Source: a virus. From it: DNA of 64,000 bases. Position 1 is the first letter of the stretch. Each line of letters begins with the position of its first letter. Under the pieces are notes generated by a model that was not told the DNA's origin, searched no databases, and saw only the letters and a program-made list of their open reading frames with translations. Below, piece after piece: positions 30,302 to 43,531 of this stretch. The position numbers and the translations under genes are program-made. The stretch spans positions 2,479 to 66,478 of the IMG/VR virus record IMGVR_UViG_3300042450_000503. One strand, 5' to 3'.

Positions 30302-30583
30302 CTAAAATTTCTTTTTATAACCAATATTAGCGGTTACGTTAGGTTTCTCTTTACTCATTCCAGACACCCCAACCCCCGCAGAAAATCCACCTTTATTAAA
30401 GTTTAATCCAGCGTTGAAGTCTCCGCCTTTAGGGGTTACCGTTCCACCTGCCTTAACATTAAATGCCCCGGACGAAGCTGTTAAAGATGGAGTCATAGAC
30501 CGCTCATCCTTATTGAAGTCAATATTAGTTTCTATACTGCGCCCCTGTTTTAAAGGTGATTGCGATCTTAGTTTAAATGCCAT
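30302..30583 (-). CDS. Small Gly-rich beta-strand protein
   Basis: 93 aa; first ORF of the leftward operon. Confidence 0.6.
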   Translation of the reverse strand: MAFKLRSQSPLKQGRSIETNIDFNKDERSMTPSLTASSGAFNVKAGGTVTPKGGDFNAGLNFNKGGFSAGVGVSGMSKEKPNVTANIGYKKKF

Positions 30584-30598
30584 AGTTATTTTTATTAG

Positions 30599-30669
30599 TT
30601 GCGGATTCAGGACTCGAACCTGGCTCTGGGGTTATGAGCCCCTTGTGCTACCAATTACACTAAACCGCG
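30599..30669 (-). tRNA. tRNA-Met(CAT), initiator-like, several stem mismatches
   Basis: Minus strand CGCGGTT TA GTGT AATTGGTA GCAC A AGGGG CTCATAA CCCCA GAG CCAGG TTCGAGT CCTGA ATCCGCA A; C1:A72 mismatch and GGG/CCC anticodon stem. Confidence 0.8.
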
Positions 30670-30676
30670 ATATAGA

Positions 30677-30690
30677 GTATAATTACGTAT
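30677..30690 (-). promoter_or_regulatory. Late-type promoter candidate (A/C)GTAATWAT
   Basis: ATACGTAATTATAC directly upstream of tRNA-Met; similar motifs precede other late genes. Confidence 0.45.
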
Positions 30691-30707
30691 AGACCCCACA
30701 ATTTACA

Positions 30708-30755
30708 GTGCGACATTAGCCTACTATTTTTATATATAAGTACCTAACGTCACAC
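30708..30755. repeat. 48-bp inverted-repeat site, copy 1
   Basis: GTGCGACATTAGCCTACTATTTTTATATATAAGTACCTAACGTCACAC. Confidence 0.75.
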
Positions 30756-30759
30756 TTTT

Positions 30760-31220
30760 TAATTAAAAAAAAATATTGTAAAAAATTTTTTATCACAAAT
30801 ATATAAGTAAAGTGTTATATACCAATTTTGTTCGCAGGGACCCCCAACGGAAACGAACTTTGTTTGGCCCACCCCCCCAGTCGATTTCGACTTTCGGAAA
30901 AAGGATTTGCCTTTTCGGTCACGGCATGCGTGAGTTGATTGGCACTTATAGGCGGAAGGTTGAGGTGTTGCGCTGCGTGCGTTTGTTATGATGAGTGGCC
31001 GTGTGTTTGTTATGATGTGATGTGTTGGTGTATGATATGTTATACGATACGGCATGATACGATACGATACGTATGGCATGCCAGCTAACAGCGTTACCTC
31101 ATCGCGCTGCATCCGATCTGGTGTTGTGTGTTACTGTAATGCGTGTTACTGTAATGGTGGTTACCGATACGTGGAGCGGAGCGACACGCGGAGCGTGTAT
31201 AGCAACGCGTATAGCACTCC
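30760..31220. other. Non-coding divergence region with short tandem repeats (candidate terminus/origin)
   Basis: Switch of transcription direction; C-runs, GATAC repeats, TGTTTGTTATGATG x2, GTGTTACTGTAATG x2. Confidence 0.5.
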
Positions 31221-31221
31221 C

Positions 31222-31263
31222 TACAGTCCTGATACGACCTAGATATGATAATATATATGTAAC
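31222..31263 (+). promoter_or_regulatory. Early promoter-like motif P1 (TACAGTCYTRATACGA-N8-TGATAATATAAATGTAAC)
   Basis: TACAGTCCTGATACGA-CCTAGATA-TGATAATATATATGTAAC; 16 bp before ATG 31280. Confidence 0.8.
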
Positions 31264-31279
31264 AAGTAAACAATAAGAC

Positions 31280-31435
31280 ATGAATAGAATAGAAGAGTTA
31301 ATAGTACAAAAGTATCCATATCAATTGGAAGAGATCTTAACAAAAATAGAGGTTATGAAACAAGACTACGATCAAGACATGTTCTTGGAAGAAGACATCA
31401 TCGAATCAATACTAATAGAATTAAATATAATATAA
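31280..31435 (+). CDS. Small acidic early protein, paralogue A (51 aa)
   Basis: MNRIEELIVQKYPYQLEEILTKIEVMKQDYDQDMFLEEDIIESILIELNII. Confidence 0.75.
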   Translation: MNRIEELIVQKYPYQLEEILTKIEVMKQDYDQDMFLEEDIIESILIELNII

Positions 31436-31436
31436 C

Positions 31437-31601
31437 ATGAAGATAGAATTTACAAGAGAAGAGTTAAATGAGTTAGTGAACGGATTGTATTCATCAAGAG
31501 AGTTCGTACTCTCATATGAAGAGGAAAAACCAATCAACACATTAATCGATCGATTAGAAACAATCATTACAACAACCGAGTTATTAACAATAAACAAATA
31601 A
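31437..31601 (+). CDS. Small early protein (54 aa)
   Basis: MKIEFTREELNELVNGLY...; packed between neighbours. Confidence 0.6.
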   Translation: MKIEFTREELNELVNGLYSSREFVLSYEEEKPINTLIDRLETIITTTELLTINK

Positions 31602-31604
31602 GAT

Positions 31605-31766
31605 ATGAGAAAGTTTACACACGATGAGAAAGTAGTAATTATTAAACGTGTAATTGTCGGTTATCAAATCGTACTCACAAGTATGTTCGTTGTTGGATTT
31701 ACGAGAGTAGTGATCGGACTGATCATGGGTGAGTTCTCGAATGTGTCGTTCGGGATTTATAACTAA
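31605..31766 (+). CDS. Small early membrane protein (53 aa)
   Basis: MRKFTHDEKVVIIKRVIVGYQIVLTSMFVVGFTRVVIGLIMGEFSNVSFGIYN. Confidence 0.6.
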   Translation: MRKFTHDEKVVIIKRVIVGYQIVLTSMFVVGFTRVVIGLIMGEFSNVSFGIYN

Positions 31767-31837
31767 TACAAACCGGAGGTGTGAAAACACCGAAGGTGTA
31801 TAGCAAATGTATAGCATTTGCGTATAGCAAAAACCCT

Positions 31838-31878
31838 TACAGTCAGGACACGAGGTCAAAATGATAATATATATGAAT
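31838..31878 (+). promoter_or_regulatory. Early promoter-like motif P2
   Basis: TACAGTCAGGACACGA-N8-TGATAATATATATGAAT. Confidence 0.75.
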
Positions 31879-31912
31879 AAAGAAATTAATAATAATAAAT
31901 AAATCAAATAAA

Positions 31913-32089
31913 ATGACTTTAAAAATTAATCCTAACTTTAGATCTTTAATTAATTCTATATTAATTAATTCTAATAAATTAAATAATTCTTTTTATATAT
32001 TAAATAATAATTTAATAATAAATCCAAAAGATCTTGAAGAAGTTGATAAATTATTGACTAGAAATCTTTATAAATATAAAGTCTTATAA
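31913..32089 (+). CDS. Small Asn-rich early protein (58 aa)
   Basis: MTLKINPNFRSLINSILINSNK...; follows P2. Confidence 0.55.
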   Translation: MTLKINPNFRSLINSILINSNKLNNSFYILNNNLIINPKDLEEVDKLLTRNLYKYKVL

Positions 32090-32094
32090 TCCTC

Positions 32095-32136
32095 TACAGT
32101 CTTAATACGATCAAAGAATGATAATATAAATGTAAG
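32095..32136 (+). promoter_or_regulatory. Early promoter-like motif P3
   Basis: TACAGTCTTAATACGA-N8-TGATAATATAAATGTAAG. Confidence 0.8.
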
Positions 32137-32163
32137 TAAATAATAATAAATAAATAAAATAAC

Positions 32164-32319
32164 ATGACTAGAATAGAACAATTAATAGTAAATAAATATC
32201 CTAACCAACTTCAAGAAATAAAAGATCAAATAGAACTTTTAAAATTAGACTATGATGAAGAATTATTCTTAGAAGAAGATATAATAGAATCAATATTAAT
32301 AGAATTAAATATAATATAA
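32164..32319 (+). CDS. Small acidic early protein, paralogue B (51 aa)
   Basis: MTRIEQLIVNKYPNQLQEIKDQIELLKLDYDEELFLEEDIIESILIELNII. Confidence 0.75.
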   Translation: MTRIEQLIVNKYPNQLQEIKDQIELLKLDYDEELFLEEDIIESILIELNII

Positions 32320-32321
32320 CT

Positions 32322-32363
32322 TACAGTCTAGATACGACTAGTAATTGATAATATAAATGTAAC
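32322..32363 (+). promoter_or_regulatory. Early promoter-like motif P4
   Basis: TACAGTCTAGATACGA-N8-TGATAATATAAATGTAAC. Confidence 0.8.
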
Positions 32364-32395
32364 AAATAATAAATAACAAATTAAATAAAATAAAG

Positions 32396-32761
32396 ATGAA
32401 CAAATTTAAAAAAGAAGTAGTAGAAGTAGAAGTAGTAGTTGTAAAAACTAACAAAGAATTATTAACTGAAGCCATCAGTAAATTAAGTCCAGAAGACTTA
32501 GCCTTGATCTATCCTAAGATCGAACGAGCTAACTTTGTAGTAAGAAAATCTTGGCTAGGTAGAAATCAAGTAATAACTTTTGTTAACAACAAAAATCAAA
32601 AGATAACTTACAATCATGATGAAGTATTAAAAGTCATGTTGCCTAAACTATCTATAATGCCATGTTGGATCAAAAGACAATACTGGTCACAATCTACTGA
32701 TATGCCAAGTAATGTCAGACATCTGGCTACTGTTGAAGTTCTAGAATCTACTGAAAAGTAG
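32396..32761 (+). CDS. Hypothetical early protein
   Basis: 121 aa after P4. Confidence 0.75.
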   Translation: MNKFKKEVVEVEVVVVKTNKELLTEAISKLSPEDLALIYPKIERANFVVRKSWLGRNQVITFVNNKNQKITYNHDEVLKVMLPKLSIMPCWIKRQYWSQSTDMPSNVRHLATVEVLESTEK

Positions 32762-32770
32762 GTTTTAGAA
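32739..32770 (+). terminator. Hairpin at gene end
   Basis: TTCTAGAATCTACT-GAAA-AGTAGGTTTTAGAA. Confidence 0.45.
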
Positions 32771-32793
32771 TAAAACAAAAATGCTATACACTC

Positions 32794-32835
32794 TACGGTC
32801 GTGACACGATCAATCTATGATAATATAAATGTAAT
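32794..32835 (+). promoter_or_regulatory. Early promoter-like motif P5
   Basis: TACGGTCGTGACACGA-N8-TGATAATATAAATGTAAT. Confidence 0.75.
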
Positions 32836-32848
32836 TAAATAAACAACT

Positions 32849-33145
32849 ATGAAAAATCAAATTAAATCAATTGAAGACGTTAAAAACTTTGTACAATATC
32901 TAATAGACAATGATCAATTGTATCATTTCGAAGACGATCCGATTGATGTTATTAATATCAATGACGAAGCTGTGTTCACACCGTATGAATGTGACTTGTT
33001 AAATCAGCGAGTTGACGAAATATGTGAGCTAAACTTGCTAGAAAGTGCATTCGAGTTCGCACTTGAGCATTTAGCAGCTGAAGATGAGATGCATGTGCAA
33101 GCCTGGAGAGAGTCATTAACACAAGAACAATTAAATAGTATATAA
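32849..33145 (+). CDS. Acidic hypothetical early protein
   Basis: 98 aa; YHFEDDP motif. Confidence 0.7.
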   Translation: MKNQIKSIEDVKNFVQYLIDNDQLYHFEDDPIDVININDEAVFTPYECDLLNQRVDEICELNLLESAFEFALEHLAAEDEMHVQAWRESLTQEQLNSI

Positions 33146-33146
33146 T

Positions 33147-33383
33147 ATGAAAGATTTAGCCTTAATCGCGCTTGGAATAGCCGCTGGATTCGTAGCATCA
33201 GCATTGATAGCAAACAAACAAGAACAGATCAGAGTTGAAGAGCAGGGTAATATACCAGCATTCTATTGGAATGATCGAGTTAACCCACCTCACAGAGGTT
33301 TTGAACTAAAAGTTGATATGTATTGGAACGAAACTAAAGATACTATCTACATGGAATATTCATCTGGTCCTGAGGGCGAGTAA
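33147..33383 (+). CDS. Membrane-anchored early protein
   Basis: 78 aa; N-terminal TM segment. Confidence 0.65.
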   Translation: MKDLALIALGIAAGFVASALIANKQEQIRVEEQGNIPAFYWNDRVNPPHRGFELKVDMYWNETKDTIYMEYSSGPEGE

Positions 33384-33386
33384 AAT

Positions 33387-33434
33387 GTGCGACGTTAGCC
33401 TACTATTTATTAACTTAATCGGCTAATGTCACTC
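33387..33434. repeat. 48-bp inverted-repeat site, copy 2
   Basis: GTGCGACGTTAGCCTACTATTTATTAACTTAATCGGCTAATGTCACTC. Confidence 0.75.
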
Positions 33435-33476
33435 TTTTTCAACAGTTGCTTGCAACTACACCGAAGGTGTATAGCA

Positions 33477-33516
33477 TACAGGCCTAATACGGTCTCTTTT
33501 TGATAATAATTACGTA
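33477..33516 (+). promoter_or_regulatory. Early promoter-like motif P6 (variant)
   Basis: TACAGGCCTAATACGG-N8-TGATAATAATTACGTA; not followed by an ORF. Confidence 0.6.
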
Positions 33517-33646
33517 GCCTGGCTTTGAAATAGCGTCGGAAGAGTAGACTCCGTCCTACATTATAGCCAAATATACTCGAAAGTAAGGTTTGCCCTTGTT
33601 TTTTACTTGAGGGTAGCGATTACTTTTGATCTTTTTAGGTAAATCG
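33514..33646 (+). ncRNA. Candidate small structured RNA
   Basis: ORF-free stretch behind P6 with several short hairpins (TGGCT/AGCCA, TACT-CGAA-AGTA, CCCTTG/TGAGGG, CGATT/AATCG). Confidence 0.3.
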
Positions 33647-33672
33647 TGTATAGCATCCACCCAAAAAACTCT

Positions 33673-33714
33673 TACAAGATCAACACGAGACTAAATTGAT
33701 AATATATTTGAATC
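33673..33714 (+). promoter_or_regulatory. Early promoter-like motif P7
   Basis: TACAAGATCAACACGA-N8-TGATAATATATTTGAATC. Confidence 0.65.
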
Positions 33715-33729
33715 AAAACAATAATAATT

Positions 33730-33864
33730 ATGACTTTAGAATTAAATAATACCGAGGTTGCCCAATTAAAAGAGTTAATTTATGACTATATCGACCGCAT
33801 CGGTGGTTTCGATCAATTAAGTGATGAAATGAAAGAGGTTTTACAAGATTTAATAGATGGATAG
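33730..33864 (+). CDS. Small acidic early protein (44 aa)
   Basis: MTLELNNTEVAQLKELIYDYIDRIGGFDQLSDEMKEVLQDLIDG; follows P7. Confidence 0.6.
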   Translation: MTLELNNTEVAQLKELIYDYIDRIGGFDQLSDEMKEVLQDLIDG

Positions 33865-33923
33865 AGAAGTACTCTATAGCACCTGTATACTATTTAATTC
33901 AAGCAAATGAAGTATAACCTTTT

Positions 33924-33965
33924 TACAATCATAATACGATAGCGAAATGATAATATAAATGTAAC
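33924..33965 (+). promoter_or_regulatory. Early promoter-like motif P8
   Basis: TACAATCATAATACGA-N8-TGATAATATAAATGTAAC. Confidence 0.8.
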
Positions 33966-33981
33966 AAAAACAAATAAATAT

Positions 33982-34263
33982 ATGGAATATAAAGTAGTAG
34001 AAAGTAAGGAAATAGTATGGTGTGAGTACGATGATAGATATGTACTAATAATTAAGTCAAATGACGAGATAATTGGGTTAAACTTCATGCAAGGTGACGA
34101 ACTTGAGATGTTTAAAGAAGATTTCACTTATGTTGATGAGAAGTTAACTGACTTTTACAATGCGGTAAGTCCATACTTAGGCGGATTGAGTGAGCTTGAC
34201 CGTATTAATCAAGCGATATGGGCATTCCATAGTTATAGAGTATTAAGAGATGAAAGATATTAA
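33982..34263 (+). CDS. Hypothetical early protein
   Basis: 93 aa after P8. Confidence 0.7.
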   Translation: MEYKVVESKEIVWCEYDDRYVLIIKSNDEIIGLNFMQGDELEMFKEDFTYVDEKLTDFYNAVSPYLGGLSELDRINQAIWAFHSYRVLRDERY

Positions 34264-34282
34264 CAAATAAAAAATAGAAAAT

Positions 34283-34399
34283 ATGGAAGAGTACAGTGAT
34301 TGTTGTGGTGCGGGTAGACACCACATATATGATGAGTTATGCGGTGATTGTTTAGAACATTGCGAGTTTACCGATTGGGATGGTGAAGATGAAAATTAA
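34283..34399 (+). CDS. Small Cys-rich acidic peptide (38 aa)
   Basis: MEEYSDCCGAGRHHIYDELCGDCLEHCEFTDWDGEDEN; zinc-ribbon-like. Confidence 0.6.
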   Translation: MEEYSDCCGAGRHHIYDELCGDCLEHCEFTDWDGEDEN

Positions 34400-34415
34400 T
34401 ATTAAAAAGTAAATT

Positions 34416-34598
34416 ATGAAAACATATACAATACAAATTAACGAAAGTTATTCAAGAATAGTAACTATAGAATTGCCAGATGATAGCGATATTAACGACG
34501 CTATTGCCGAAGTGCGTAGCGATTATTATAATGAGCTAATAATATTAGATTATAGAGATTTTGATGATGCGGATTTTTATGAATTAGAAAATTATTAA
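34416..34598 (+). CDS. Small acidic protein (DpnD/PcfM-like pattern)
   Basis: 60 aa; YTIQINESYSRIVTIE...AIAEVRSDYYNELIILDYRDF. Confidence 0.55.
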   Translation: MKTYTIQINESYSRIVTIELPDDSDINDAIAEVRSDYYNELIILDYRDFDDADFYELENY

Positions 34599-34600
34599 GT

Positions 34601-34825
34601 ATGATAGGAGATAACCAAATTGTAGAGTATATTAATCCGTATTTTCCGGATAGACAAATGTACAAATGTAAGATTGAGGATTCAACATATCACACCGATG
34701 ACTATGGTAAATTAGTTGATTGGATTGTTGATAAGACTGTTAATGCAGAGTACTATGCGGAATGTAAGCAATTAAGCGACATAGCGTGCGCTAGCTTTAT
34801 GGCGGATGTAAAATATAAAGATTAA
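34601..34825 (+). CDS. Hypothetical early protein
   Basis: 74 aa. Confidence 0.6.
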   Translation: MIGDNQIVEYINPYFPDRQMYKCKIEDSTYHTDDYGKLVDWIVDKTVNAEYYAECKQLSDIACASFMADVKYKD

Positions 34826-34832
34826 TAATAGG

Positions 34833-34906
34833 AGTTAAGAGGAGTAATGGTAAACTCAGGCCGATCAGTGATGCCCGCAATGTAGGTTCGATTCCTACCT
34901 TAACTA
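34833..34906 (+). tRNA. tRNA-like gene with non-canonical anticodon arm
   Basis: Acceptor AGTTAAG/CTTAACT, D arm GAGT/ACTC, T arm GTAGG-TTCGATT-CCTAC; anticodon stem pairs only 3 of 5. Confidence 0.6.
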
Positions 34907-34916
34907 CAAATTCATT

Positions 34917-34958
34917 TACAGTCTTAATACGATTAATAAATGATAATATAAATGTAAC
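34917..34958 (+). promoter_or_regulatory. Early promoter-like motif P9
   Basis: TACAGTCTTAATACGA-N8-TGATAATATAAATGTAAC. Confidence 0.8.
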
Positions 34959-34974
34959 TAACAAATAATAATAT

Positions 34975-35154
34975 ATGAAAAATTCAATCAAGTTTTTAAA
35001 GTACAATTTCATTAAGCTCAACGGAGTGCTATACACACCCTACCTTGTCGGCGAACTACCGAACACGTTCGGATTTATAACTAATGACGAAGATCAAGAT
35101 GGTTATAGTGAGTGGTTTAATTTTAAAGGTTTAACTTATATAATCAAGAAATAG
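34975..35154 (+). CDS. Small early protein (59 aa)
   Basis: MKNSIKFLKYNFIKLNGVLYTPY...; follows P9. Confidence 0.65.
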   Translation: MKNSIKFLKYNFIKLNGVLYTPYLVGELPNTFGFITNDEDQDGYSEWFNFKGLTYIIKK

Positions 35155-35155
35155 T

Positions 35156-35344
35156 ATGATGTCATTCCCTAAATATAAACAAAACTTGCGAATGATCGGT
35201 GACGAAGTGTGGAGCTACTCTACTAATGTTGCAAGAAAAGAAGATGATAAACTAATACAATTAGGTTATTGGTCTGTAACTACCCAGAAACATATTAACT
35301 ATGTAGCCCGTGAATTAAATCTAACCTTAATAAAAACAGTATGA
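35156..35344 (+). CDS. Conserved small phage protein
   Basis: 62 aa; VWSYSTNVA...WSVTTQKHINY. Confidence 0.7.
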   Translation: MMSFPKYKQNLRMIGDEVWSYSTNVARKEDDKLIQLGYWSVTTQKHINYVARELNLTLIKTV

Positions 35345-35589
35345 TAGTAATAGCCAGTAATATGAAAGAAGCGTGTCAATTTCTTGAAGAAAAGAAAGCA
35401 CGTAATAGAGCCAACCGTATAAATGCGGTTAATACAGATGGATTGTGTAAAAGCTTCACTAGTGATGACTACAAAAAAGTTAAAACTACAATGAAGGGTG
35501 CAGCCAACCGTAAAGCCAAGACCTTTAGCGTAACTAGATACTGGAATCACAACAACCTAACATTAACAGAAATTAAAAATAAATATTAA
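35341..35589 (+). CDS. Basic hypothetical protein
   Basis: 82 aa, overlapping stop/start. Confidence 0.65.
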   Translation: MIVIASNMKEACQFLEEKKARNRANRINAVNTDGLCKSFTSDDYKKVKTTMKGAANRKAKTFSVTRYWNHNNLTLTEIKNKY

Positions 35590-35590
35590 T

Positions 35591-35878
35591 ATGAGAAGAA
35601 TAGTATTAGAACAAAATGAAGTAATATCATTAAGTGAAGTAGATAATCGATCGTTTGTAGGTATACAATGGGAAAGCGGGCAGAAATGTATGATTATTAG
35701 AACTATAGAGGGATATTGCAGTATAAGCAATGACCATACCCCTAATATAATGAATGTATGGTATGCTGATTCCATACAAGAATACGTGACAAGAGCATTA
35801 AATCAAGGTAATAATACAAACTCTAGAGCCTATGCTTTCAATAATACAAAAGAGTTATGTGAATGGATGAGTATATAA
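35591..35878 (+). CDS. Hypothetical protein
   Basis: 95 aa. Confidence 0.65.
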   Translation: MRRIVLEQNEVISLSEVDNRSFVGIQWESGQKCMIIRTIEGYCSISNDHTPNIMNVWYADSIQEYVTRALNQGNNTNSRAYAFNNTKELCEWMSI

Positions 35879-35891
35879 TAAAAATAAATAT

Positions 35892-36083
35892 ATGAAAAAG
35901 TTAAACGGATTTGAAAGTTATTTAGTTCTTGAGGGCTTAGCGTCTATGAGAAGAACAATGAAAATGGATATATTAGAAATTCAAGCTGACGGTAAAAACC
36001 CTATTATGACTACAGGTTATGTAGATATGGTTATCGACGAAACAATTGAAAAGATTAAAACATTAACCTTAAAACAAAAGTAA
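35892..36083 (+). CDS. Hypothetical protein
   Basis: 63 aa. Confidence 0.65.
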   Translation: MKKLNGFESYLVLEGLASMRRTMKMDILEIQADGKNPIMTTGYVDMVIDETIEKIKTLTLKQK

Positions 36084-36298
36084 TGAAAGAGCAGTATATT
36101 AAGATGCGTAACAGTAACCAACTAGATATTGGTTTGCTATACACCTATGCTCGAGAGCAGGGCTTAACTATGCCGATCGATCAGTTTGCGGCGGGCCTGC
36201 AATTTATGGCTAGTGACGTGATAGAGTATTTAGATCATAAACTTGAGTTAACTTTATTATTTAGTAAAGACGGTAAATTTATAAAAGTAGTAGAATAA
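36083..36298 (+). CDS. Hypothetical protein
   Basis: 71 aa, TAATG coupling. Confidence 0.65.
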   Translation: MKEQYIKMRNSNQLDIGLLYTYAREQGLTMPIDQFAAGLQFMASDVIEYLDHKLELTLLFSKDGKFIKVVE

Positions 36299-36624
36299 TG
36301 GAAAAAAGATATAAAGATAGCGGATATGGCTATAGAGATGTTGCGGTATTAGTAAGCGCTGGATATGGCGCTGGGTGGAGTTCTTGGAGTATGCCTGAAG
36401 AGGCATTGTTTGATCCGGTTATAGTAGATTTTGTTGAAAATGACAAAACCAACACAGAAGAGTTCTCCGAGTATTTAGAAAAAAAATATTCAGAAGTTTT
36501 TACAGGCGGAGCTGGTGGTCTATATGTATGTTGGGTACCTGAAGGTAAAGAATTTAGAATAGACGAATATGACGGAGCTGAAAGTTTAGTGCTAAAAGAT
36601 AATGAAAGCTGGATAACAGCGTAG
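36298..36624 (+). CDS. Conserved phage protein
   Basis: 108 aa; VAVLVSAGYGAGWSSW...FRIDEYDGAE. Confidence 0.75.
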   Translation: MEKRYKDSGYGYRDVAVLVSAGYGAGWSSWSMPEEALFDPVIVDFVENDKTNTEEFSEYLEKKYSEVFTGGAGGLYVCWVPEGKEFRIDEYDGAESLVLKDNESWITA

Positions 36625-36625
36625 T

Positions 36626-36667
36626 TACAATCCTGATACGAATAAGAATTGATAATATAAATGTAAC
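36626..36667 (+). promoter_or_regulatory. Early promoter-like motif P10
   Basis: TACAATCCTGATACGA-N8-TGATAATATAAATGTAAC. Confidence 0.8.
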
Positions 36668-36684
36668 AAATTAAATATAATAAT

Positions 36685-36933
36685 ATGAGTGATTTAACTA
36701 AAAAAATTAATTTAGTAGGTAGATTTGCTACCTTATCTAAAACTGTAGACTTTGATGATTTTTATTCCATAAATATATGGATTGCACGAGACGAAATTAG
36801 TTTACAAGGGCATATTAACCCTACTAATATGAGCTCAGCTAAAAAGCTTGGCGTAGATTTAGTATTTGAAAATGATAGTCAAATGCTTAAGGGTGAGTCT
36901 GAAGATGGTAAATTAAGAATCGTTTTAACCTAA
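36685..36933 (+). CDS. Hypothetical protein
   Basis: 82 aa after P10. Confidence 0.7.
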   Translation: MSDLTKKINLVGRFATLSKTVDFDDFYSINIWIARDEISLQGHINPTNMSSAKKLGVDLVFENDSQMLKGESEDGKLRIVLT

Positions 36934-36938
36934 TAACT

Positions 36939-37124
36939 ATGACAAAAGAAAAATTAGCATTTCAAGAAGCCTTAGCATTCGAAGTATGGATGCGCGAAAC
37001 TGTAAGATCTGTACATTATGCAGACAACTCTAAAATGGCTGACGCTTATGACAGAGTATTTAATAACGCATTAGAAATAGTAATATATGAAAACGCTAAA
37101 TCAAAAAGAACTAGACCTAGTTAG
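36939..37124 (+). CDS. Hypothetical protein
   Basis: 61 aa. Confidence 0.6.
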   Translation: MTKEKLAFQEALAFEVWMRETVRSVHYADNSKMADAYDRVFNNALEIVIYENAKSKRTRPS

Positions 37125-37308
37125 GTTAGCCGTGCTTGAAGGAGTACTAGAAACCCAAAATAAATTACGCATTGACTTTAAAATTAGAGAATCTGATTTA
37201 ACTGTTCATCAAGTAATAAGACTTGAGCAGATCACGGATTTGCTATACACGCTGTTTTGCCAAGTTGTTGAAGAGCGCGGTGTCTTACAGTCCGAATACG
37301 AACAATAA
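37087..37308 (+). CDS. Hypothetical protein
   Basis: 73 aa. Confidence 0.6.
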   Translation: MKTLNQKELDLVRLAVLEGVLETQNKLRIDFKIRESDLTVHQVIRLEQITDLLYTLFCQVVEERGVLQSEYEQ

Positions 37309-37327
37309 TTGATAATATAAATGTAAC
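37286..37327 (+). promoter_or_regulatory. Early promoter-like motif P11
   Basis: TACAGTCCGAATACGA-N8-TGATAATATAAATGTAAC. Confidence 0.8.
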
Positions 37328-37344
37328 CAATAAAATTTAATAAA

Positions 37345-37752
37345 ATGGATAAAATAAACAACCTGTTTGATCAGGAAATTACAAAAACTATAGATGCTTA
37401 CCCAAGTATTTATACTAAAGATGATGTTGTTAGCTTATTAAGTAAGCTACGTACTGTAGTATTAACTGAAACCTCTGAAGCTTTATCTAATGCAAACGCT
37501 ACTCCAATTACTGAAATGGACTTTCAAAACTTTAGCGAAAGTGTAACCAGAGAATTAGAAAACAGAATAAACAGAGGCGATGTTGATGTGCATGACTATT
37601 CAAGCGCTGAGTTCAGTATTAACTATCACAATACAATTGAAATCGAAAGTATTGACTTTAATTCTGACGCTGTAACTGATGAATTATCTGATATATTATT
37701 AGATAAATTTCAAGAATCATTTGGTAAATTAATAACTAATACTGAAGAATAA
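37345..37752 (+). CDS. Acidic hypothetical protein
   Basis: 135 aa after P11. Confidence 0.75.
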   Translation: MDKINNLFDQEITKTIDAYPSIYTKDDVVSLLSKLRTVVLTETSEALSNANATPITEMDFQNFSESVTRELENRINRGDVDVHDYSSAEFSINYHNTIEIESIDFNSDAVTDELSDILLDKFQESFGKLITNTEE

Positions 37753-38006
37753 TGATAGATCTTAGAAAGAATAAAACAGAAGATCAGCCGCTACCTAAAT
37801 GGTTTAATGGTATGTTATATACTAATGGCGGAATGGTAATGAACCCTTTTAGTCATGAAAGTATTGAATTAACAGCCGCTGAATTAAGTATGTATGATTA
37901 TATTATGGGTTGTGTTATGTTAAATAAGTATGATGCAACCTTTAATAAAGCAATGAATTGGTTTCGGAAAGCCAATGGTGATGCCTATATGGTATTATTA
38001 GATTAA
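37752..38006 (+). CDS. Conserved phage protein
   Basis: 84 aa; NPFSHESIEL...WFRKANGDAYMVLLD. Confidence 0.75.
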   Translation: MIDLRKNKTEDQPLPKWFNGMLYTNGGMVMNPFSHESIELTAAELSMYDYIMGCVMLNKYDATFNKAMNWFRKANGDAYMVLLD

Positions 38007-38011
38007 CCATG

Positions 38012-38082
38012 TGTCTTATGGTGTAACGGTAGCACTAATCACTTTGACTGATTCAGTTTAGGTTCGAATCCTTATAAGACAA
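38012..38082 (+). tRNA. tRNA-Gln(TTG)
   Basis: Acceptor TGTCTTA/TAAGACA, anticodon arm AATCA-CTTTGAC-TGATT, T loop GGTTCGAATCC. Confidence 0.9.
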
Positions 38083-38104
38083 CTAACAATTAAATTTAAT
38101 AACT

Positions 38105-38341
38105 ATGACTAATGTAAACTTAGTGGAAACACTAACGGTTGATAGTAGCGCTATCTTTGAAGTTGCTTACTATCCTAATGTCGAAAGACTATTTGTACTG
38201 TTTAAAAACGGTAAAGAGTATGAGTACTTCAATGTGCCAACTCACGTAATGAATGGTTTAAGAGAAGCCTCATCTAAAGGTAAATTCTTAAACAAATATA
38301 TCTTAGCTTTCTACAGATTTAAGAAAGTTATTACGGTATAA
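38105..38341 (+). CDS. KTSC domain protein
   Basis: 78 aa; VDSSAIFEVAY...LFKNGKEYEYFNVP...ASSKGKFLN. Confidence 0.9.
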   Translation: MTNVNLVETLTVDSSAIFEVAYYPNVERLFVLFKNGKEYEYFNVPTHVMNGLREASSKGKFLNKYILAFYRFKKVITV

Positions 38342-38344
38342 TTG

Positions 38345-39080
38345 CTATACACGGTTGTCCTGCTGATCCGATCGGTAAGGTAGCGTAGAGGCCGTGTTAT
38401 TTACAATTGTCTCACATGAGTGGTATAGAGGTTGTAACGCAGGAAACAGTGCGTAATGCTGAATGCGGGATTGGGGTGACCCCGGTCGCGACTCAGGGAG
38501 CAGTGAGTTCGTTAAATAAGAACTGTTCAAAATGTTAATCACTCGGGGTTGTGTGAAGTTATACCAGGCTTAGCTAGCTGGTTGCAACCGAAATATGGGA
38601 TAAAGAAAATAACCGGTCCTCGGATTAACAAAGAACTAAGTGCTGGGCTAAATGGATCTGTTTCAGTCTCCGGGCATTGTCACGGCCGACGGGTTAAGGG
38701 GTTCGATTCCCCTTTTAGTTCCTAATAGCTAAGCTGTGTAAAGCACCAGATCTGATAAACTGTGTGAAGCTATAGGTTAAACATTGAATACCTTATCACG
38801 GCGGGAATCTATTGAGGAACGGGTGATAAAAGATACTATCAGTAATGGTAGATGTGTTGTTCCCTTGAGAAAGGAATACAGGTGGGTAGATGAAATAAGC
38901 TATCAGAACTGCAGATAAAGATGCGGACTGCACAACACAAATGAGTTCTCAGCAAGTAGTTAAAGAACCGTTGTATTACACCTTAATTGGTAGTAATCAA
39001 CAAACGTCATATTAACTACGCGACCCTAATCATTAAGTGAGCAGCGAGGGCTAACTTGCAAGGCTATAATGATGGGTGCT
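38345..39080 (+). ncRNA. Large structured non-coding RNA candidate with embedded tRNA-like domain
   Basis: ~740 nt without a credible ORF, GC-richer than flanks, more than 10 helices, GNRA loops, T-loop GTTCGATTC. Confidence 0.65.
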
Positions 39081-39096
39081 AAAAAAATTAAATATT

Positions 39097-39249
39097 ATGA
39101 GCAGAACAGTAAAACAAGCGTATAGAAAATCAAGAGTATTTGATAAAACATGCAGAAATAATGGAGCATGCTCTTATTGTAGAGACAATCGTTTACATAA
39201 GCATAATAAGAAATTAATTGCTTACAGTCTTGATACGATTAAAGAATGA
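39097..39249 (+). CDS. Small basic Cys-containing protein (50 aa)
   Basis: MSRTVKQAYRKSRVFDKTCRNNGACSYCRDNRLHKH... Confidence 0.6.
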   Translation: MSRTVKQAYRKSRVFDKTCRNNGACSYCRDNRLHKHNKKLIAYSLDTIKE

Positions 39250-39264
39250 TAATATAATTGTAAA
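39223..39264 (+). promoter_or_regulatory. Early promoter-like motif P12
   Basis: TACAGTCTTGATACGA-N8-TGATAATATAATTGTAAA. Confidence 0.8.
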
Positions 39265-39273
39265 ACAACAAAT

Positions 39274-39855
39274 ATGAAAGAATTAACAACTAAACAATTA
39301 GCGGAAGTAAATAAAAATTTAGATAATTACTTCTCATTAGCAACCGACAAAGATATTGATAACGGTATTGCGTGGTATAAGCAAGCACATTATATATGTA
39401 AAGATCTTGCTGAGCGGTATAATACTAAGCTAGAAACTGTTGCAAGTATCATTAGTGCATTGTCACCACGTAATCGTTGGCCACAAAATATCAAAGATAC
39501 CAAAACGGTACTTGATGCTATACACGCTGGCCTCGAGCCTGATCAAGTTAAAGTGTGTACGTTCAACCGAAACAAAGAAAAAGCTTTCTTATTGGGTAAA
39601 GAACAAACGTCTATTACTGATAAAAGTTTAAAAACATTCAGTTTTGTTAACAATATTGCAAAATTAGATAATAATTATATTACAGTTGATGTGTGGCATT
39701 TGCGTGCTTGTTTTGGTAAAACTATAACAACTAATCCAAGCAGAAAAGCCTATGATCAAATAAGATTATTAACAATCGAAAAAGCTAAACAACGAGGCTT
39801 AAACGGTTACGAGTACCAAGCTATAGTGTGGAACGCAGTAAAAAACAATTTTTAA
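39274..39855 (+). CDS. Phage protein with HhH-glycosylase-like pattern (DUF7178-like)
   Basis: 193 aa; WY, ISALSPRNRW, KTFSF, ITVDVWHLRA, QAIVW. Confidence 0.6.
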   Translation: MKELTTKQLAEVNKNLDNYFSLATDKDIDNGIAWYKQAHYICKDLAERYNTKLETVASIISALSPRNRWPQNIKDTKTVLDAIHAGLEPDQVKVCTFNRNKEKAFLLGKEQTSITDKSLKTFSFVNNIAKLDNNYITVDVWHLRACFGKTITTNPSRKAYDQIRLLTIEKAKQRGLNGYEYQAIVWNAVKNNF

Positions 39856-39857
39856 TT

Positions 39858-40019
39858 ATGACAGCAAAAGAAAAAGCAAAAGAACTTATAGAAAAAATGA
39901 GTTCTAAAAATCGTAAATTTAATGCAATATCTTGTGCATTAATAACCGCGGATGAAGCGGCTAAAATTACAGGTAGTAGATACTGGTATGATGTTCAACG
40001 AGAAATACAAAAACTATGA
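39858..40019 (+). CDS. Hypothetical protein
   Basis: MTAKEKAKELIEK...YWYDVQREIQKL; ATG start preferred to the upstream GTG of the ORF track. Confidence 0.6.
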   Translation: MTAKEKAKELIEKMSSKNRKFNAISCALITADEAAKITGSRYWYDVQREIQKL

Positions 40020-40489
40020 ATATATTCTATTTAGATAAAGACCCGGATAAAGCAGCTACAATGATGTATAACAAGCATGTTGTAAAAATGATCCTCGAAT
40101 CTGCGCAATTATTATGTACCGCGCATATTATGTTAGATGGTGATGATGCAGACGTACCATATAAAATGACTCACAAAAATCACCCGTCAGCAATATGGGC
40201 GCGAGAGTCTGCTGACAATTATGCGTGGCTGTACTTTCATATGTTAGCGCTTGGCGAAGAATATACTAAACGTTATGGTAAAAAACATTTAACTATAACA
40301 AAATGCGAAGAATGTTTAGGCAATATACCGGGCGGCATGTTAAACTTAGGTTCAACTCCAATGCCTCAATGTATGCCTGATGAATACAAAGTTCCTGGCG
40401 ATAGCGTAACCGCTTACTGGAATTATTACGAAGCTGAAAAAGTAAAAATACGAAATAGTAACGAAGAAATAAGAACACGACCTAACTAA
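40016..40489 (+). CDS. Pyrimidine-dimer DNA glycosylase (endonuclease V family)
   Basis: 157 aa; MNIFYLD, HVVKMILESAQLLCTAH, THKNHPS, PQCMPDEYK. Confidence 0.8.
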   Translation: MNIFYLDKDPDKAATMMYNKHVVKMILESAQLLCTAHIMLDGDDADVPYKMTHKNHPSAIWARESADNYAWLYFHMLALGEEYTKRYGKKHLTITKCEECLGNIPGGMLNLGSTPMPQCMPDEYKVPGDSVTAYWNYYEAEKVKIRNSNEEIRTRPN

Positions 40490-40490
40490 T

Positions 40491-40733
40491 ATGAAAGCAA
40501 CAATTAAATTTAAGTTACCAGAAGATAACATGGAATTTGCTATACACAATATGGCTCAAGACATGGCCGGTTTACTATGGGAATTAACTCATAATGTAAA
40601 GAAAAAATGCGAGTGGGCAGCCGATCAAGTTGATCCTATCAATGCTAATATCTATGACGGAATAGATATAGTGTTTGAAAAAATAACAGAATTATTAAAT
40701 GATTATAATATTGACTCAGATAAATTAGGATAA
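40491..40733 (+). CDS. Hypothetical protein
   Basis: 80 aa; MKATIKFKLPED. Confidence 0.7.
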   Translation: MKATIKFKLPEDNMEFAIHNMAQDMAGLLWELTHNVKKKCEWAADQVDPINANIYDGIDIVFEKITELLNDYNIDSDKLG

Positions 40734-40933
40734 TGATGGAAAAAGACATAAAAGAACGAGCAAGTGATAAAATATATTCTATATACATGGGATTAATGCG
40801 AGAATCGCTAAACCCCGATTTATTCTGGAGCATTGATAAAGATCGAGCAAAAGAATTAATGGTAGCGCAAAACAGAGAGATACAAGTATATAGTTATATA
40901 TTAAGTTTAATAGAAAAAGATAATAAATTATGA
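40733..40933 (+). CDS. Hypothetical protein
   Basis: 66 aa. Confidence 0.6.
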   Translation: MMEKDIKERASDKIYSIYMGLMRESLNPDLFWSIDKDRAKELMVAQNREIQVYSYILSLIEKDNKL

Positions 40934-41607
40934 AAATATGGCATATATCAGATACTCATACGTATCACGACTTATTAACTATACCTAAAGGTATTGATAT
41001 GGTAATACATTCTGGCGATTGTAGTAATCCTAGAGATCCATATAACAATGAACCTGAAGTTAAAGAGTTTATTCATTGGTACAAATCATTACCTATTGAG
41101 CATAAGATTTATGTAGCAGGTAATCATGATACCTCTATTGAAAAAGGCTTAGTTAAAAAAATAGATTTTTCTGGGTACAACATACATTACTTAGAGAATG
41201 ACTATATAGATATTGACGGCATTAAAATATTTGGGTCACCCCATACGCCCCAGTTTGGCCAATGGGCATTTATGAAAGATCGCAATAAACTAGATCGATT
41301 CTGGCGCAATGCTATACACGAACCTTGCGACATTATTGTTACGCACGGGCCGCCTAAAGGCATTTTAGACAAGTCTTTTGATCGTCTTAATAATATGGAA
41401 CCCTGTGGAGATAAGTCTTTATTAAATGTAGTATTAGAGATGCAACCTGCATATCATTTGTTTGGTCACATACACAACTGCAAAGATATTATTAATGCGG
41501 GAATGTTAAAACTAAGCGCATACGACACGTGGTTTAGTAATGGATCAGTAGTAACTGATGGCAAATTTGGAAAATTAACTAGTAATGGTAATATATTTGA
41601 AATATGA
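40930..41607 (+). CDS. Calcineurin-like metallophosphoesterase
   Basis: 225 aa; SDTH, HSGD, AGNHD, THGPP, FGHIH. Confidence 0.9.
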   Translation: MKIWHISDTHTYHDLLTIPKGIDMVIHSGDCSNPRDPYNNEPEVKEFIHWYKSLPIEHKIYVAGNHDTSIEKGLVKKIDFSGYNIHYLENDYIDIDGIKIFGSPHTPQFGQWAFMKDRNKLDRFWRNAIHEPCDIIVTHGPPKGILDKSFDRLNNMEPCGDKSLLNVVLEMQPAYHLFGHIHNCKDIINAGMLKLSAYDTWFSNGSVVTDGKFGKLTSNGNIFEI

Positions 41608-41849: not shown

Positions 41850-41947
41850 AATATGGAATTTTGGAAAATATGGTTGATAGCAATGCCTTTATGGGTTATT
41901 GCATTTAAATTACACGACATTTTGCAACAATTTAAAAAGAAATAATT

Positions 41948-42461: not shown

Positions 42462-42464
42462 ACT

Positions 42465-42506: not shown

Positions 42507-42529
42507 AAAAGGATTAGAACTAGAACAAT

Positions 42530-43530: not shown

Positions 43531-43531
43531 T

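Follow-up and report, generated by a model that had tools for sequence, protein, structure and literature searches.

The first early promoters of this podophage of Flavobacteriia are capped on their upstream side by short DNA hairpins, each fused to the first copy of a phased 10-bp box. The hairpins are unique in the genome, keep their structure in relatives while the stems differ, and are selected on one strand. Judged by their sequence, they appear to be DNA mini-hairpins of the C-GNA-G/GNRA "sheared G-A" class, with the top strand selected. We tentatively read them as a DNA-level signal that is extruded by supercoiling and coupled to recognition of the box by a phage-specific factor, an explanation that we prefer although it falls somewhat short of probable. 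The features concerned are given below in coordinates of the window, the whole 64,000-nt stretch of viral DNA that was analysed.

30976-31017, plus strand: two direct repeats CGTG(C/T)GTTTGTTATGATG, 24 nt apart (family D15), conserved in 4 relatives.
31184-31198, plus strand: hairpin 1, ACACGC-GGA-GCGTGT, with a 6-bp stem, a GGA triloop and a C:G closing pair.
31195-31216, plus strand: two-box array, GTGTATAGCA (31195-31204) and GCGTATAGCA (31207-31216), starts 12 nt apart.
31219-31270, plus strand: P1, an early promoter-like repeat, CTACAGTC..ATACGAC..GATAATATATATG (families D1-D3), with a -7 box close to TAnnTTTG.
31772-31780, plus strand: small hairpin ACC-GGA-GGT, 5 nt past the stop codon of the ORF at 31605-31766.
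31778-31791, plus strand: alternative hairpin GGTGT-GAAA-ACACC, the one picked by the minimum-energy fold.
31787-31799, plus strand: hairpin 2, ACACC-GAA-GGTGT, with a 5-bp stem and the core CCGAAGG.
31796-31829, plus strand: three-box array, boxes at 31796, 31807 and 31820, spaced by 11 and 13 nt.
31835-31886, plus strand: P2, an early promoter-like repeat.
32782-46552, minus strand: ten exact boxes (TGCTATACAC on the plus strand), starting at 32782, 35027, 36135, 37241, 38343, 39516, 40538, 41310, 43051 and 46543.
33387-33439, plus strand: 53-nt element GTGCGACGTTAGCCTACTATTT...GTCACTCTTTTT, a 77% copy of 30708-30760 (family D9).
33444-33457, plus strand: companion hairpin AGTTGC-TT-GCAACT, directly 5' of hairpin 3.
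33457-33471, plus strand: hairpin 3, TACACC-GAA-GGTGTA, with a 6-bp stem.
33467-33476, plus strand: single box GTGTATAGCA, at hairpin 3.
After 33476, plus strand: degenerate promoter-like stretch TACAGGCC..ATACGG..GATAATAA, named P6 in the first-pass annotation.
33646-33655, plus strand: single box lacking a neighbouring hairpin; the promoter repeat at 33664-33731 follows downstream.

The four hairpins named in the first-pass annotation (the three full ones and the small one) were all recovered on re-reading the sequence. The full hairpins have the C:G closing pair and the 3' arm running into the box that had been described for them: the arms overlap exact copies of GTGTATAGCA at 31195, 31796 and 33467, and that of hairpin 1 shares 4 nt with the start of box 1a. 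When the entire 66,478-bp genome was scanned on both strands for hairpins with a stem of at least 5, a GAA or GGA loop and a C:G closing pair, exactly these three were returned, all on the plus strand, all within 2.3 kb and all fused to a box. The hairpins are not equally frequent genome-wide, an objection that had been raised in advance; shuffling the genome with dinucleotides preserved gave three or more in 2 of 200 trials (mean 0.5), and shuffling the 2.9-kb region did so in 0 of 500 (mean 0.03). Taken alone, hairpins 1 and 3 have weak z-scores in the DNA energy model (0.09 and -1.17, respectively); the standard model gives GNA triloops no bonus. Hairpin 2 and the alternative hairpin at 31778-31791 are mutually exclusive because both use the same ACACC, and the counterpart of the alternative form at locus L006, from a relative, is GGTGC-GCAA-GCACC. 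Orthologous copies of hairpin 1 are present in relatives, which also carry TGTTCC-ATC-GGAACA at the position of the companion of hairpin 3. The three hairpin-plus-box units form repeat family D10, in which two match over 19 nt at 100% identity and the other at 79%, so the earlier statement that stems vary while structure is kept reduces to one change within the window; it is in relatives, with 24 distinct stems, that the statement holds.

The relatives are uncultured IMG/VR viruses, which supplied 56 distinct first plus-strand boxes from 26 loci. In 36 of the 56, a perfect hairpin ends between -2 and +3 nt from GTATAGCA, and the feature is therefore conserved, the other point on which the first-pass annotation had staked it; only 14 of 177 minus-strand boxes abut a perfect hairpin, and none of the ten exact minus-strand boxes listed above has adjacent structure beyond the level of composition. 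The 38-nt 5' flanks of the 56 first boxes have a mean DNA folding energy of -6.2 kcal/mol, and 75% of them fold at -5 kcal/mol or below; the corresponding shares are 19% for shuffles matched in composition and 2% for windows taken at random. The compensatory stem changes that had been proposed as a check are seen in the 5' arm, which in relatives changes in step with the G(T/C)GT that opens the box (ACACC/GGTGT versus ACGCC/GGCGT, for example). The distance from hairpin to box is -2 to +3 nt, and larger in some relatives, and in 115 plus-strand contexts the sequence lying 5' of box or hairpin shows no information content. Triloops are GNA in 21 cases and TNC in none, tetraloops are GNRA in 11 and TYNC in 1, and the C-GNA-G triloop is the commonest loop (17 of 56 hairpins). 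The plus strand folds better than the minus strand in 40 of the 56 flanks with DNA parameters and in 43 with RNA parameters. Because the loops are so unequal to their complements, one strand is selected rather than a duplex palindrome, which fits the single-stranded or cruciform DNA signal suggested earlier. A duplex palindromic operator was considered and rejected, with arms 3-6 nt apart, stems of 4-7 bp and GNA loops outnumbering TNC by 21 to 0. Among 39 first plus-strand boxes of relatives, 27 lie 15-105 nt past an upstream stop codon. One-strand selection and a position after stop codons would suit an RNA element equally well.

The box has the consensus G(T/C)GTATAGCA and is 10 bp long, clade-specific and strongly polar. 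Matches to GTGTATAGCA with at most one mismatch number 22 against 4.2 expected, a count reached in 0 of 100 shuffles. The 16 exact copies are concentrated in the first ~16 kb of the early arm at positions conserved in relatives; both strands of the arm are used (7 plus-strand and 10 minus-strand boxes), and none lies in the ~43 kb of late genes. Five Bacteroidota genomes (2.6-5.1 Mb) hold 2-9 copies each, which is the chance level, and five cultured relatives hold 0-3 each; on this distribution the box is a phage-specific signal restricted to this clade. Adjacent plus-strand boxes are 11-13 nt apart, or about one helical turn, in 10 of 21 distinct pairs, and most of the remaining pairs are near 2, 3 or 4 turns (24-25, 34 and 44-45 nt). 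The promoter core GATAATAW lies 20-70 nt downstream of 76 of the 102 plus-strand boxes. Phasing and promoter adjacency suggest that the boxes behave like duplex binding sites. The middle box of the 31796-31829 array falls within the loop of a 7-bp inverted repeat, GCAAATG/CATTTGC. The minus-strand boxes are mostly inside plus-strand genes, with four successive copies ~1.1 kb apart; within ORFs they occupy codon frame 1 (65) or frame 2 (86) and only twice frame 0, while nearly no plus-strand boxes lie in coding sequence. In every relative the boxes change polarity near 34 kb. Such strict polarity inside genes implies that a plain duplex-binding factor is insufficient and that the box must also be read by some process specific to one strand. 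Scanning about 60 ORFs with Pfam and PHROG identified no candidate box-binding protein and returned only a weak HTH match (42570-43190), a sigma factor and unrelated enzymes.

The box arrays are set against the upstream edge of the early promoters. The hairpins had been placed ahead of P1, P2 and P6; this stands for P1 (31219) and P2 (31835), but P6 is only a degenerate copy that the repeat finder does not list among the promoter-like family. The -7 box of the early promoters is close to the flavobacterial sigma-A consensus TAnnTTTG, so that they look like promoters of host sigma-A type and would need no virion polymerase. Both copies of the 53-nt element (30708-30760 and 33387-33439) are upstream of a hairpin-box module. 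The direct repeats at 30976-31017 fall within 30760-31180, a GC-rich noncoding stretch that is conserved and lies left of hairpin 1; hairpin 1 has no ORF upstream. Early and middle genes run rightward and late genes leftward, and the genome includes a gene for a giant virion protein.

GNA mini-hairpins are unusually stable in DNA and form part of the promoters of the N4 virion RNA polymerase, as the first-pass annotation had said and as passages of PMC4496689 and PMC13037366 describe. In favour of the analogy with N4 that the annotation implied, the hairpins share with N4 early promoters P1-P3 a 5-7 bp stem, a purine-centred GAA or GGA triloop with C:G closure, function on one strand, and clustering as three copies within the first kilobases of the early arm of a podophage genome whose overall layout, giant virion protein gene included, is also N4-like. 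The analogy fails on orientation and register. The C-GNA-G hairpin of N4 belongs to the template strand of the genes under its control (stated in part of PMC4496689), and the two hairpins found in the N4 genome (90-102 and 557-573) are on the minus strand, with gp1 and gp2 on the plus strand. Here the hairpins and the early ORFs are all on the plus strand; the GNA loop is on the non-template strand, and an N4-type reader would therefore fire leftward, away from the early genes. N4 promoters are conserved from -17 to +1 and initiate at a constant distance from the hairpin, to its 5' side on the template strand, whereas here nothing is conserved 5' of the hairpin, the conserved sequence is 3' of it at a variable distance, and phased box repeats and a separate duplex promoter follow. 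The hairpin module does not serve the early genes as an N4-type promoter, and it is very improbable that the hairpins are N4-type promoters whose reader, a virion-packaged RNA polymerase, is concealed in the giant 2903-aa protein. Searches of that protein against Pfam, PHROGs, PDB sequences and, by tblastn, phages gave no polymerase match, and of the 500 Foldseek PDB matches counted for a model of residues 1120-2000 (pLDDT 63.6, mostly helical), 0 reached E ≤ 0.001. Residues 2130-2903 are predicted to be all-helical at low confidence (pLDDT 45.4, too poor for a fold search), and residues 1-1120 resemble phage "large polyvalent protein" clusters in language-model features only, which is a lead. 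No N4-type polymerase, unseen in the first-pass annotation as well, was visible to sequence-profile, PDB, tblastn or structure-model searches. A possible but rather unlikely alternative is a signal for single-strand initiation (ssi-like) or an origin. The unwound top-strand mini-hairpin with its 3' box tail would be a template for the phage primase-helicase or another initiator, with synthesis starting in the tail and running leftward and the phased boxes acting as iterons for an initiator protein. RSF1010 ssiA and ssiB and the complementary-strand origin of phage G4 are priming signals capped by a mini-hairpin. The CCGAAGG core of hairpins 2 and 3 is the one capping ssiA, and the layout also agrees, with a conserved single-strand 3' tail beginning GTGT and iteron-like repeats nearby; at ssiA, RepB' starts at T32, at the GTG triplet 3' of the hairpin (parts of PMC13037366 and PMC8567376). 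The GNA-loop strand is the template both for RepB' at ssiA and for the N4 polymerase, and selection of one strand fits priming. The phage encodes a Toprim/DnaB primase-helicase (46295-48001; Pfam and PHROG), no ORF scanned matched a DNA polymerase family, hairpin 1 lies where cumulative GC skew turns, beside the noncoding stretch that carries the iteron-like direct repeats, and the polarity flip of the boxes near 34 kb resembles that of replication-tied motifs. However, the skew turn coincides with the switch in gene orientation, the minus-strand boxes have no hairpins, and each of the three modules is at a short fixed distance from a promoter, for which an origin has no need. RSF1010 has one ssi per strand, flanking a single iteron origin, whereas all three modules here are on the plus strand and tied to promoters. 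Its ssi hairpin is 21 nt long, with 6 nt on the 5' side recognised by RepB', a primase of archaeo-eukaryotic type; the ORFs scanned here include only the Toprim/DnaB type, and no RepB'-type primase, RepC-type initiator or HUH initiator. The absence of boxes from the ~43 kb of late genes means that they are not general Okazaki priming sites. Priming and injection-related roles, both raised in the first-pass annotation, are possible.

The same hairpins could fold in plus-sense read-through transcripts, within the 3' UTRs of preceding early units, as terminators, 3' decay blocks or processing sites, in which case the box would be unpaired in the RNA and complementary to UGCUAUACAC where this occurs in early and middle mRNAs from further downstream. 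We consider an RNA element possible, if rather improbable. The hairpins lie in short spacers after plus-strand ORFs, in keeping with the stop codons near first boxes of relatives; strand asymmetry and the 11 GNRA tetraloops are also typical of RNA hairpins; and an RNA target would explain why minus-strand boxes are always mRNA-sense and in two codon frames. Intrinsic terminators likewise combine a GC-rich hairpin, in an AT-rich genome, with a site between a stop codon and the next promoter, and GNRA loops. Unlike them, these hairpins have no T run, their tail being the conserved box to which they are fused, and none of the three is among the 2 terminator-like sites in 30500-35500. Their stems are only 4-7 bp, whereas a terminator-like hairpin in the late region of the same phage has 8 bp followed by CTCTTTT. 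Helical phasing of boxes would have no meaning in RNA, hairpin 1 without an upstream ORF argues against a 3' UTR, and an Rfam search gave no match. C-GNA-G triloops are not known to be special in RNA. In DNA the motif, here the commonest loop, confers stability (a passage of PMC13037366). It is more doubtful still, and we would call it quite unlikely, that the 10-mer is a phage nickase site marking localized single-strand interruptions, as in T5, phiKMV and tf, with the hairpin presenting top-strand sites. Relaxase nic sites also have a hairpin followed by a conserved single-strand tail on the 3' side, the layout seen here. The motifs of T5, phiKMV and tf resemble the 10-mer, though not the hairpin, in being a polar 9-19 nt consensus of ~14 copies at conserved positions in the early half, as are the 16 exact boxes; in tf, a 9-nt consensus has 14 copies, all on the same strand and 11 within the left half, at sites conserved among relatives (from part of PMC3517423). 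Those nick motifs are confined to one strand, have no tandem phased arrays next to promoters and no adjacent hairpins, whereas our boxes use both strands, and the ORFs scanned yielded neither a nickase nor an HUH domain. The rolling-circle origins of circoviruses and geminiviruses pair a stem-loop with adjacent Rep-binding direct repeats, and their 9-12 nt loops hold the nick site. Their strand-specific stem-loop, short phased direct repeats and intergenic position between divergent units are shared; the 3-4 nt loops, the lack of an HUH Rep among the ORFs scanned and the 66-kb dsDNA genome of a tailed phage are different. Finally, the hairpins might have no function and have arisen by chance or as by-products of box duplication, through partial inverted copies. 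One duplication could indeed account for two of the three units, given their identity, but the 24 distinct stems with a co-varying 5' arm, the loop asymmetry of 21 to 0 and the shuffle controls largely refute this reading, which is barely credible.

What the first-pass annotation observed is confirmed, and its interpretation is partly supported. Under the preferred explanation, a torsion-sensitive module at the early promoters, a candidate phage-specific factor would bind the boxes along one face of duplex DNA. At N4 promoters, physiological levels of supercoiling suffice to extrude short GNA hairpins (described in part of PMC4496689); there, gyrase-dependent supercoiling drives extrusion and host SSB stabilises the hairpin. 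The hairpins here may be extruded in the same way, by negative supercoiling that gyrase and the strong divergent and tandem promoters generate. The opening 2-4 letters of the first box make up the 3' arm of the hairpin; that box could therefore not be recognised as duplex while the hairpin is extruded, or the hairpin be extruded while the box is so recognised, and the module may serve at the genome's early end as an entry point or as a switch that responds to torsion.

The window carries three C-GNA-G hairpins on the + strand at the divergence point of its two gene arms, where the early arm begins. Each hairpin forms a module with one or more 10-mer boxes and an early promoter-like repeat. The principal features are listed below.

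Features of the window
31184–31198, + strand: hairpin 1
31772–31780, + strand: a fourth, smaller hairpin
31787–31799, + strand: hairpin 2
33457–33471, + strand: hairpin 3
31219–31270: early promoter-like repeat P1
31835–31886: early promoter-like repeat P2
after 33476: degenerate early promoter-like repeat P6
30598–30669, − strand: tRNA-Met (Rfam and ARAGORN)
34833–34906, + strand: tRNA (Rfam, 39.9 bits; no call by ARAGORN)
38012–38083, + strand: tRNA-Gln (Rfam and ARAGORN)
~30700–30760, 8376–8452 and 20357–20400, − sense: TACGTAAT followed by TATA-rich sequence, late-arm intergenic
53850–62561, − strand: 2903-aa ORF (993 metagenomic homologues, no family match)

The sequences and positions of the four hairpins are as described in the first-pass annotation, and the 3′ arm of each of the three full ones was correctly said to run into the 10-mer, since it overlaps an exact GTGTATAGCA. 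Both strands of the 66,478-base genome, of which the window covers 64,000 bases, were scanned for stems of at least 5 pairs with a GAA or GGA loop and a C:G closing pair. Exactly three hairpins were returned, those already reported, and such hairpins are thus not equally frequent genome-wide. Dinucleotide shuffles of the genome gave a mean of 0.5 hairpins and reached three in 2 of 200 trials, while shuffles of the 2.9-kb region gave a mean of 0.03 and reached three in none of 500; a chance origin is highly improbable. Module 2 contains three overlapping, competing hairpins (ACC-GGA-GGT, GGTGT-GAAA-ACACC and ACACC-GAA-GGTGT), and the same competition is present with changed letters in one relative, locus L006.

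By megablast, the window has no close DNA relative among phages on deposit. Its terminase and portal proteins put it with the podophages of Flavobacteriia, nearest to the uncultured podovirus MW202828 (63% and 52% identity) and then to the Flavobacterium elemo phages, Maribacter phage Panino, and Cellulophaga and Tenacibaculum phages. Genes on the − strand (1–30.7 kb and 53.8–64 kb) encode structural proteins, a GroEL-like protein and the 2903-aa ORF. On the + strand (31.2–53.5 kb), numerous small ORFs are followed by genes for an Erf-like protein, an exonuclease, a Toprim/DnaB primase-helicase (46295–48001), a sigma factor (43532–44299), thymidylate synthase and ribonucleotide reductase. A 177-nt duplication (31260–31436 and 32144–32320, 76% identity) spans two 51-aa ORFs (31280–31435 and 32164–32319), which are paralogous early genes. 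The + strand ORF at 50386–50877 has weak matches to phage endonuclease I and DUF1064, and its product may be a junction-resolving enzyme able to cut extruded cruciforms. At gathering score, Rfam matched only the three tRNAs in the genome, and it gave no match at E ≤ 1 within 30650–33750.

Conservation of the hairpins was assessed in 80 IMG/VR loci collected with a conserved early protein (40016–40489) as query (43–98% identity). Boxes are carried by 26 loci, namely 25 from IMG/VR and the window's own early arm; other loci, such as L016–L023, lack them. The 38-nt flanks 5′ of the first '+' box (early-gene strand) of each array have a mean folding energy of −6.2 kcal/mol (56 distinct flanks from 26 loci that are akin to one another, so that distinct contexts are not independent events). 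Folding at −5 kcal/mol or below is seen in 75% of these flanks, versus 19% of composition-matched shuffles and 2% of 520 random windows. These scores understate the hairpins, since the energy model has no GNA triloop bonus. Of the 56 first '+' boxes, 36 are abutted by a perfect hairpin, its 3′ arm ending between −2 and +3 nt from GTATAGCA, and 24 distinct stem sequences occur among these hairpins, including ACACC/GGTGT, ACGCC/GGCGT, CGCC/GGCG, CCGCC/GGCGG, ACCCG/CGGGT and CACTTG/CAAGTG. Such a hairpin accompanies 14 of 177 boxes in the opposite ('−') orientation, whose flanks fold no better than shuffles. The proposal that stems vary while the structure is kept therefore holds across the relatives; within the window its support is thin, because two of the three hairpin-box units are identical over 19 nt.

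The loops reveal which strand is selected. A TNC triloop on the box strand is a GNA triloop on the complementary strand. Among 56 perfect GC-rich hairpins in the flanks, the box strand carries 21 GNA and no TNC triloops, and 11 GNRA versus one TYNC tetraloop. With DNA parameters, the box strand is also the better-folding of the two strands in 40 of 56 flanks, and with RNA parameters it is so in 43 of 56. This asymmetry of loops and folding rules out a duplex palindromic operator and implies that a single strand is read, either as top-strand DNA or as + sense RNA. The stability that the first-pass annotation attributed to GNA triloops is upheld by PMC13037366, which describes GNA and GNNA loops with C:G closure as a 'mini-hairpin' class of extreme stability in DNA.

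Within the box contexts only G(T/C)GTATAGCA(t) is conserved, and there is no information content in the flanks. Seven '+' boxes, every one intergenic, lie in the window's early arm at 31.2–33.7 kb, together with ten '−' boxes at 32.8–46.5 kb (32782–46552), four of which are consecutive at intervals of 1102–1108 nt. Further copies lie at 13329, 51669 and 60814. Beyond the initial 2.5 kb of that arm, 12 of 13 copies read TGCTATACAC in the sense of the genes. All relatives show the polarity of the window, with '+' copies first, only '−' copies afterwards and spacing that widens with distance; box position is also often kept. In arrays, 10 of 21 distinct adjacent pairs of '+' boxes are 11–13 nt apart and most others are near 2, 3 or 4 helical turns, while no '−' boxes are in tandem. 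A promoter core lies 20–70 nt downstream of 76 of 102 '+' boxes versus 25 of 209 '−' boxes. By codon frame, '−' boxes within ORFs fall 65 times in frame 1, 86 times in frame 2 and twice in frame 0, and their near-absence from frame 0 indicates a nucleic-acid signal rather than a peptide. Some 930 bases beginning at a '−' box (38342–39273) lack a + strand ORF of at least 60 aa and have no Rfam match at gathering score.

Five Bacteroidota genomes hold 2–9 copies of the box versus 2–5 of a reversed control, which is chance level, and a host Chi, uptake or boxA-like word was rejected on these counts, although the true host may be another bacterium. Five cultured relatives (elemoA, Panino, phi38:1, phi18:3 and Gundel_1) have 0–3 copies each, also chance level. 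The signal is therefore clade-specific, and its reader is probably phage-encoded. Among 1,471 full-text literature matches to the 10-mer and the 8-mer, the 15 listed were to primers, loxP sites and similar sequences, with none on phages. The nearest deposited relative (MW202828.1) is without the 10-mer. Its early arm contains all 14 copies of a 16-bp palindrome, GTGTCGTTAACGACAC (record positions 43747–55159), many of them 20–35 nt upstream of start codons.

The early genes have a repeated duplex promoter of their own, in at least eight copies. Its TATAAATG, TATATATG or TATATTTG element closely resembles the −7 box of flavobacterial sigma-A promoters, given as TAnnTTTG in PMC9723704, and by sequence the early promoters look like the host sigma-A type. 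A role of the box as late promoter was rejected, as late intergenic regions share another word, TACGTAAT...TATA, perhaps the one by which the phage sigma factor (43532–44299) recognises its promoters. Between the arms, a GC-rich noncoding stretch (30760–31180) is conserved in four relatives and is a possible origin or packaging site. Two repeats each of CGTGTGTTTGTTATGATG and TGTGTTACTGTAA occur in it, along with a GATACG run and a CCCACCCCCC tract. The − strand ORF inside the stretch (30759–31112) matches no family and is perhaps not a true gene. A 53-nt element occurs upstream of two hairpin-box modules, at 30708–30760 and 33387–33439 (77% identity). TTACAG stands before the first copy and TATATATAAG after it, and for this reason that copy may hold a further rightward promoter.

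Contigs of four relatives end 200–660 nt upstream of the first box array and are classed by IMG/VR as linear without end repeats. A terminal repeat was discarded on the one case checked (L026, record G001), in which a 450-nt stretch upstream of the first array (1023–1472) recurs at 62392–62841 with 96% identity, about 1 kb inside the other contig end. Such a position denotes an internal module repeat, and the repeated module may break assemblies there.

The likeness to N4 virion RNA polymerase promoters drawn in the first-pass annotation fails on strand. N4 promoters have the hairpin on the template strand, with the loop centred at −11 and conservation from −17 to +1, as described in PMC4496689. 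In the first 4 kb of the N4 genome we found two C-GNA-G hairpins with stems of at least 5 pairs (90–102 and 557–573), both on the − strand and upstream of the + strand genes gp1 and gp2. In the window, by contrast, GNA loops and early ORFs share a strand, so that an N4-type enzyme would transcribe leftward, away from the early genes. The conserved sequence is also on the other side of the hairpin, at a variable distance. The hairpins are not N4-type promoters for the early genes, and N4-type promoters are very unlikely here.

No N4-type polymerase had been noticed in the window, and none was found by sequence, profile or fold searches, with about a third of the 2903-aa protein poorly modelled. 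Searches with this ORF in Pfam, PHROGs, PDB sequences and, by tblastn, phage records gave no match. A phmmer search of the PDB returned noise only (best E 0.17), and a profile of 44 homologues found no polymerase there, its sole match being low-complexity (E 0.007). The AlphaFold model of residues 1120–2000 is mostly helical (pLDDT 63.6), and E ≤ 0.001 is reached by none of the 500 PDB fold matches counted; residues 2130–2903 are predicted to be all-helical at low confidence (pLDDT 45.4). Language-model features liken residues 1–1120, the N-terminal third, to phage 'large polyvalent protein' clusters, as a lead only. By eye, an HExxH motif lies near residue 916 and a HAD-like DxDxT near residue 1993. 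A likeness to sigma-70 region 2 at residues ~1195–1260, also seen by eye and in the homologue consensus, was dropped because no sigma family came up in Pfam at E ≤ 10 and an hhalign comparison with the sigma factor of the phage itself yielded a probability of 0.15%. The protein is probably an injected multi-domain virion protein.

Our preferred reading, held tentatively, is a DNA-level module in which a phage-specific factor would act on phased boxes together with a supercoil-extruded hairpin. It weighs jointly the top-strand mini-hairpin, its fusion to the first box, the one-turn phasing, the abutting host-type promoters and the location at the early genome end. The putative factor would bind the phased duplex boxes, and supercoiling would extrude the hairpin, as in N4. 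Because the opening letters of the first box form the 3′ arm, the hairpin could be extruded or that box recognised as duplex, but not both at once, and the module could then serve as a torsion-sensitive switch or entry point. The competing hairpins of module 2, kept in L006, fit a switch. The same hairpins might instead form an ssi-like priming or origin signal, which we think unlikely although there is genuine evidence for it. The CCGAAGG core of hairpins 2 and 3 is common to RSF1010 ssiA, where it caps the hairpin and RepB′ starts in a GTG triplet 3′ of it, according to PMC13037366 and PMC8567376. Conserved iteron-like repeats lie directly left of hairpin 1, and the phage has a primase-helicase, with no DNA polymerase family match among the ORFs scanned.

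The position of the hairpins would also suit an RNA 3′-UTR hairpin, but the stems are short and have no T run, DNA-type triloops predominate and the boxes are phased by the helical turn, and we give this explanation a low probability. The 10-mer would have a close parallel in the phage tf motif (PMC3517423) if it were a nick site, a role that seems distinctly improbable. The strict polarity of boxes inside genes needs a strand-specific process, and no proposed reading accounts for everything. A bolder idea, to which we give limited credence, is that an uncultured Flavobacteriia phage clade has one new single-strand initiation signal that comes in two forms, the hairpin-box unit and the dispersed polar boxes. 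A putative phage enzyme (primase, nickase or polymerase) would read 5′-(mini-hairpin)-GTGTATAGCA-3′ on the strand that carries it, firing leftward from three hairpin-assisted sites at the early end and rightward over the next ~15 kb from sites ~1 kb apart.

To our knowledge, stable GNA mini-hairpins have few proven natural roles: N4 promoters, RSF1010 ssi sites and perhaps the phage G4 origin. Here this chemistry is conserved by structure in dozens of uncultured phage genomes and arranged differently. The hairpin lies on the non-template strand and is joined to phased copies of a 10-bp word, which is about a thousand times denser here than in bacterial genomes. This arrangement points to a further phage use of strand-specific DNA structure at the genome end that bears the first promoters. 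With its strict polarity and ~1 kb spacing through early and middle genes, the 10-mer is an unexplained genome-wide signal, akin in kind to those that led to the T5 and tf nick motifs, themselves still unsolved. If the hairpin-box units and dispersed boxes are indeed one initiation signal, the part of the genome that enters the cell first would carry a series of programmed starts or breaks.
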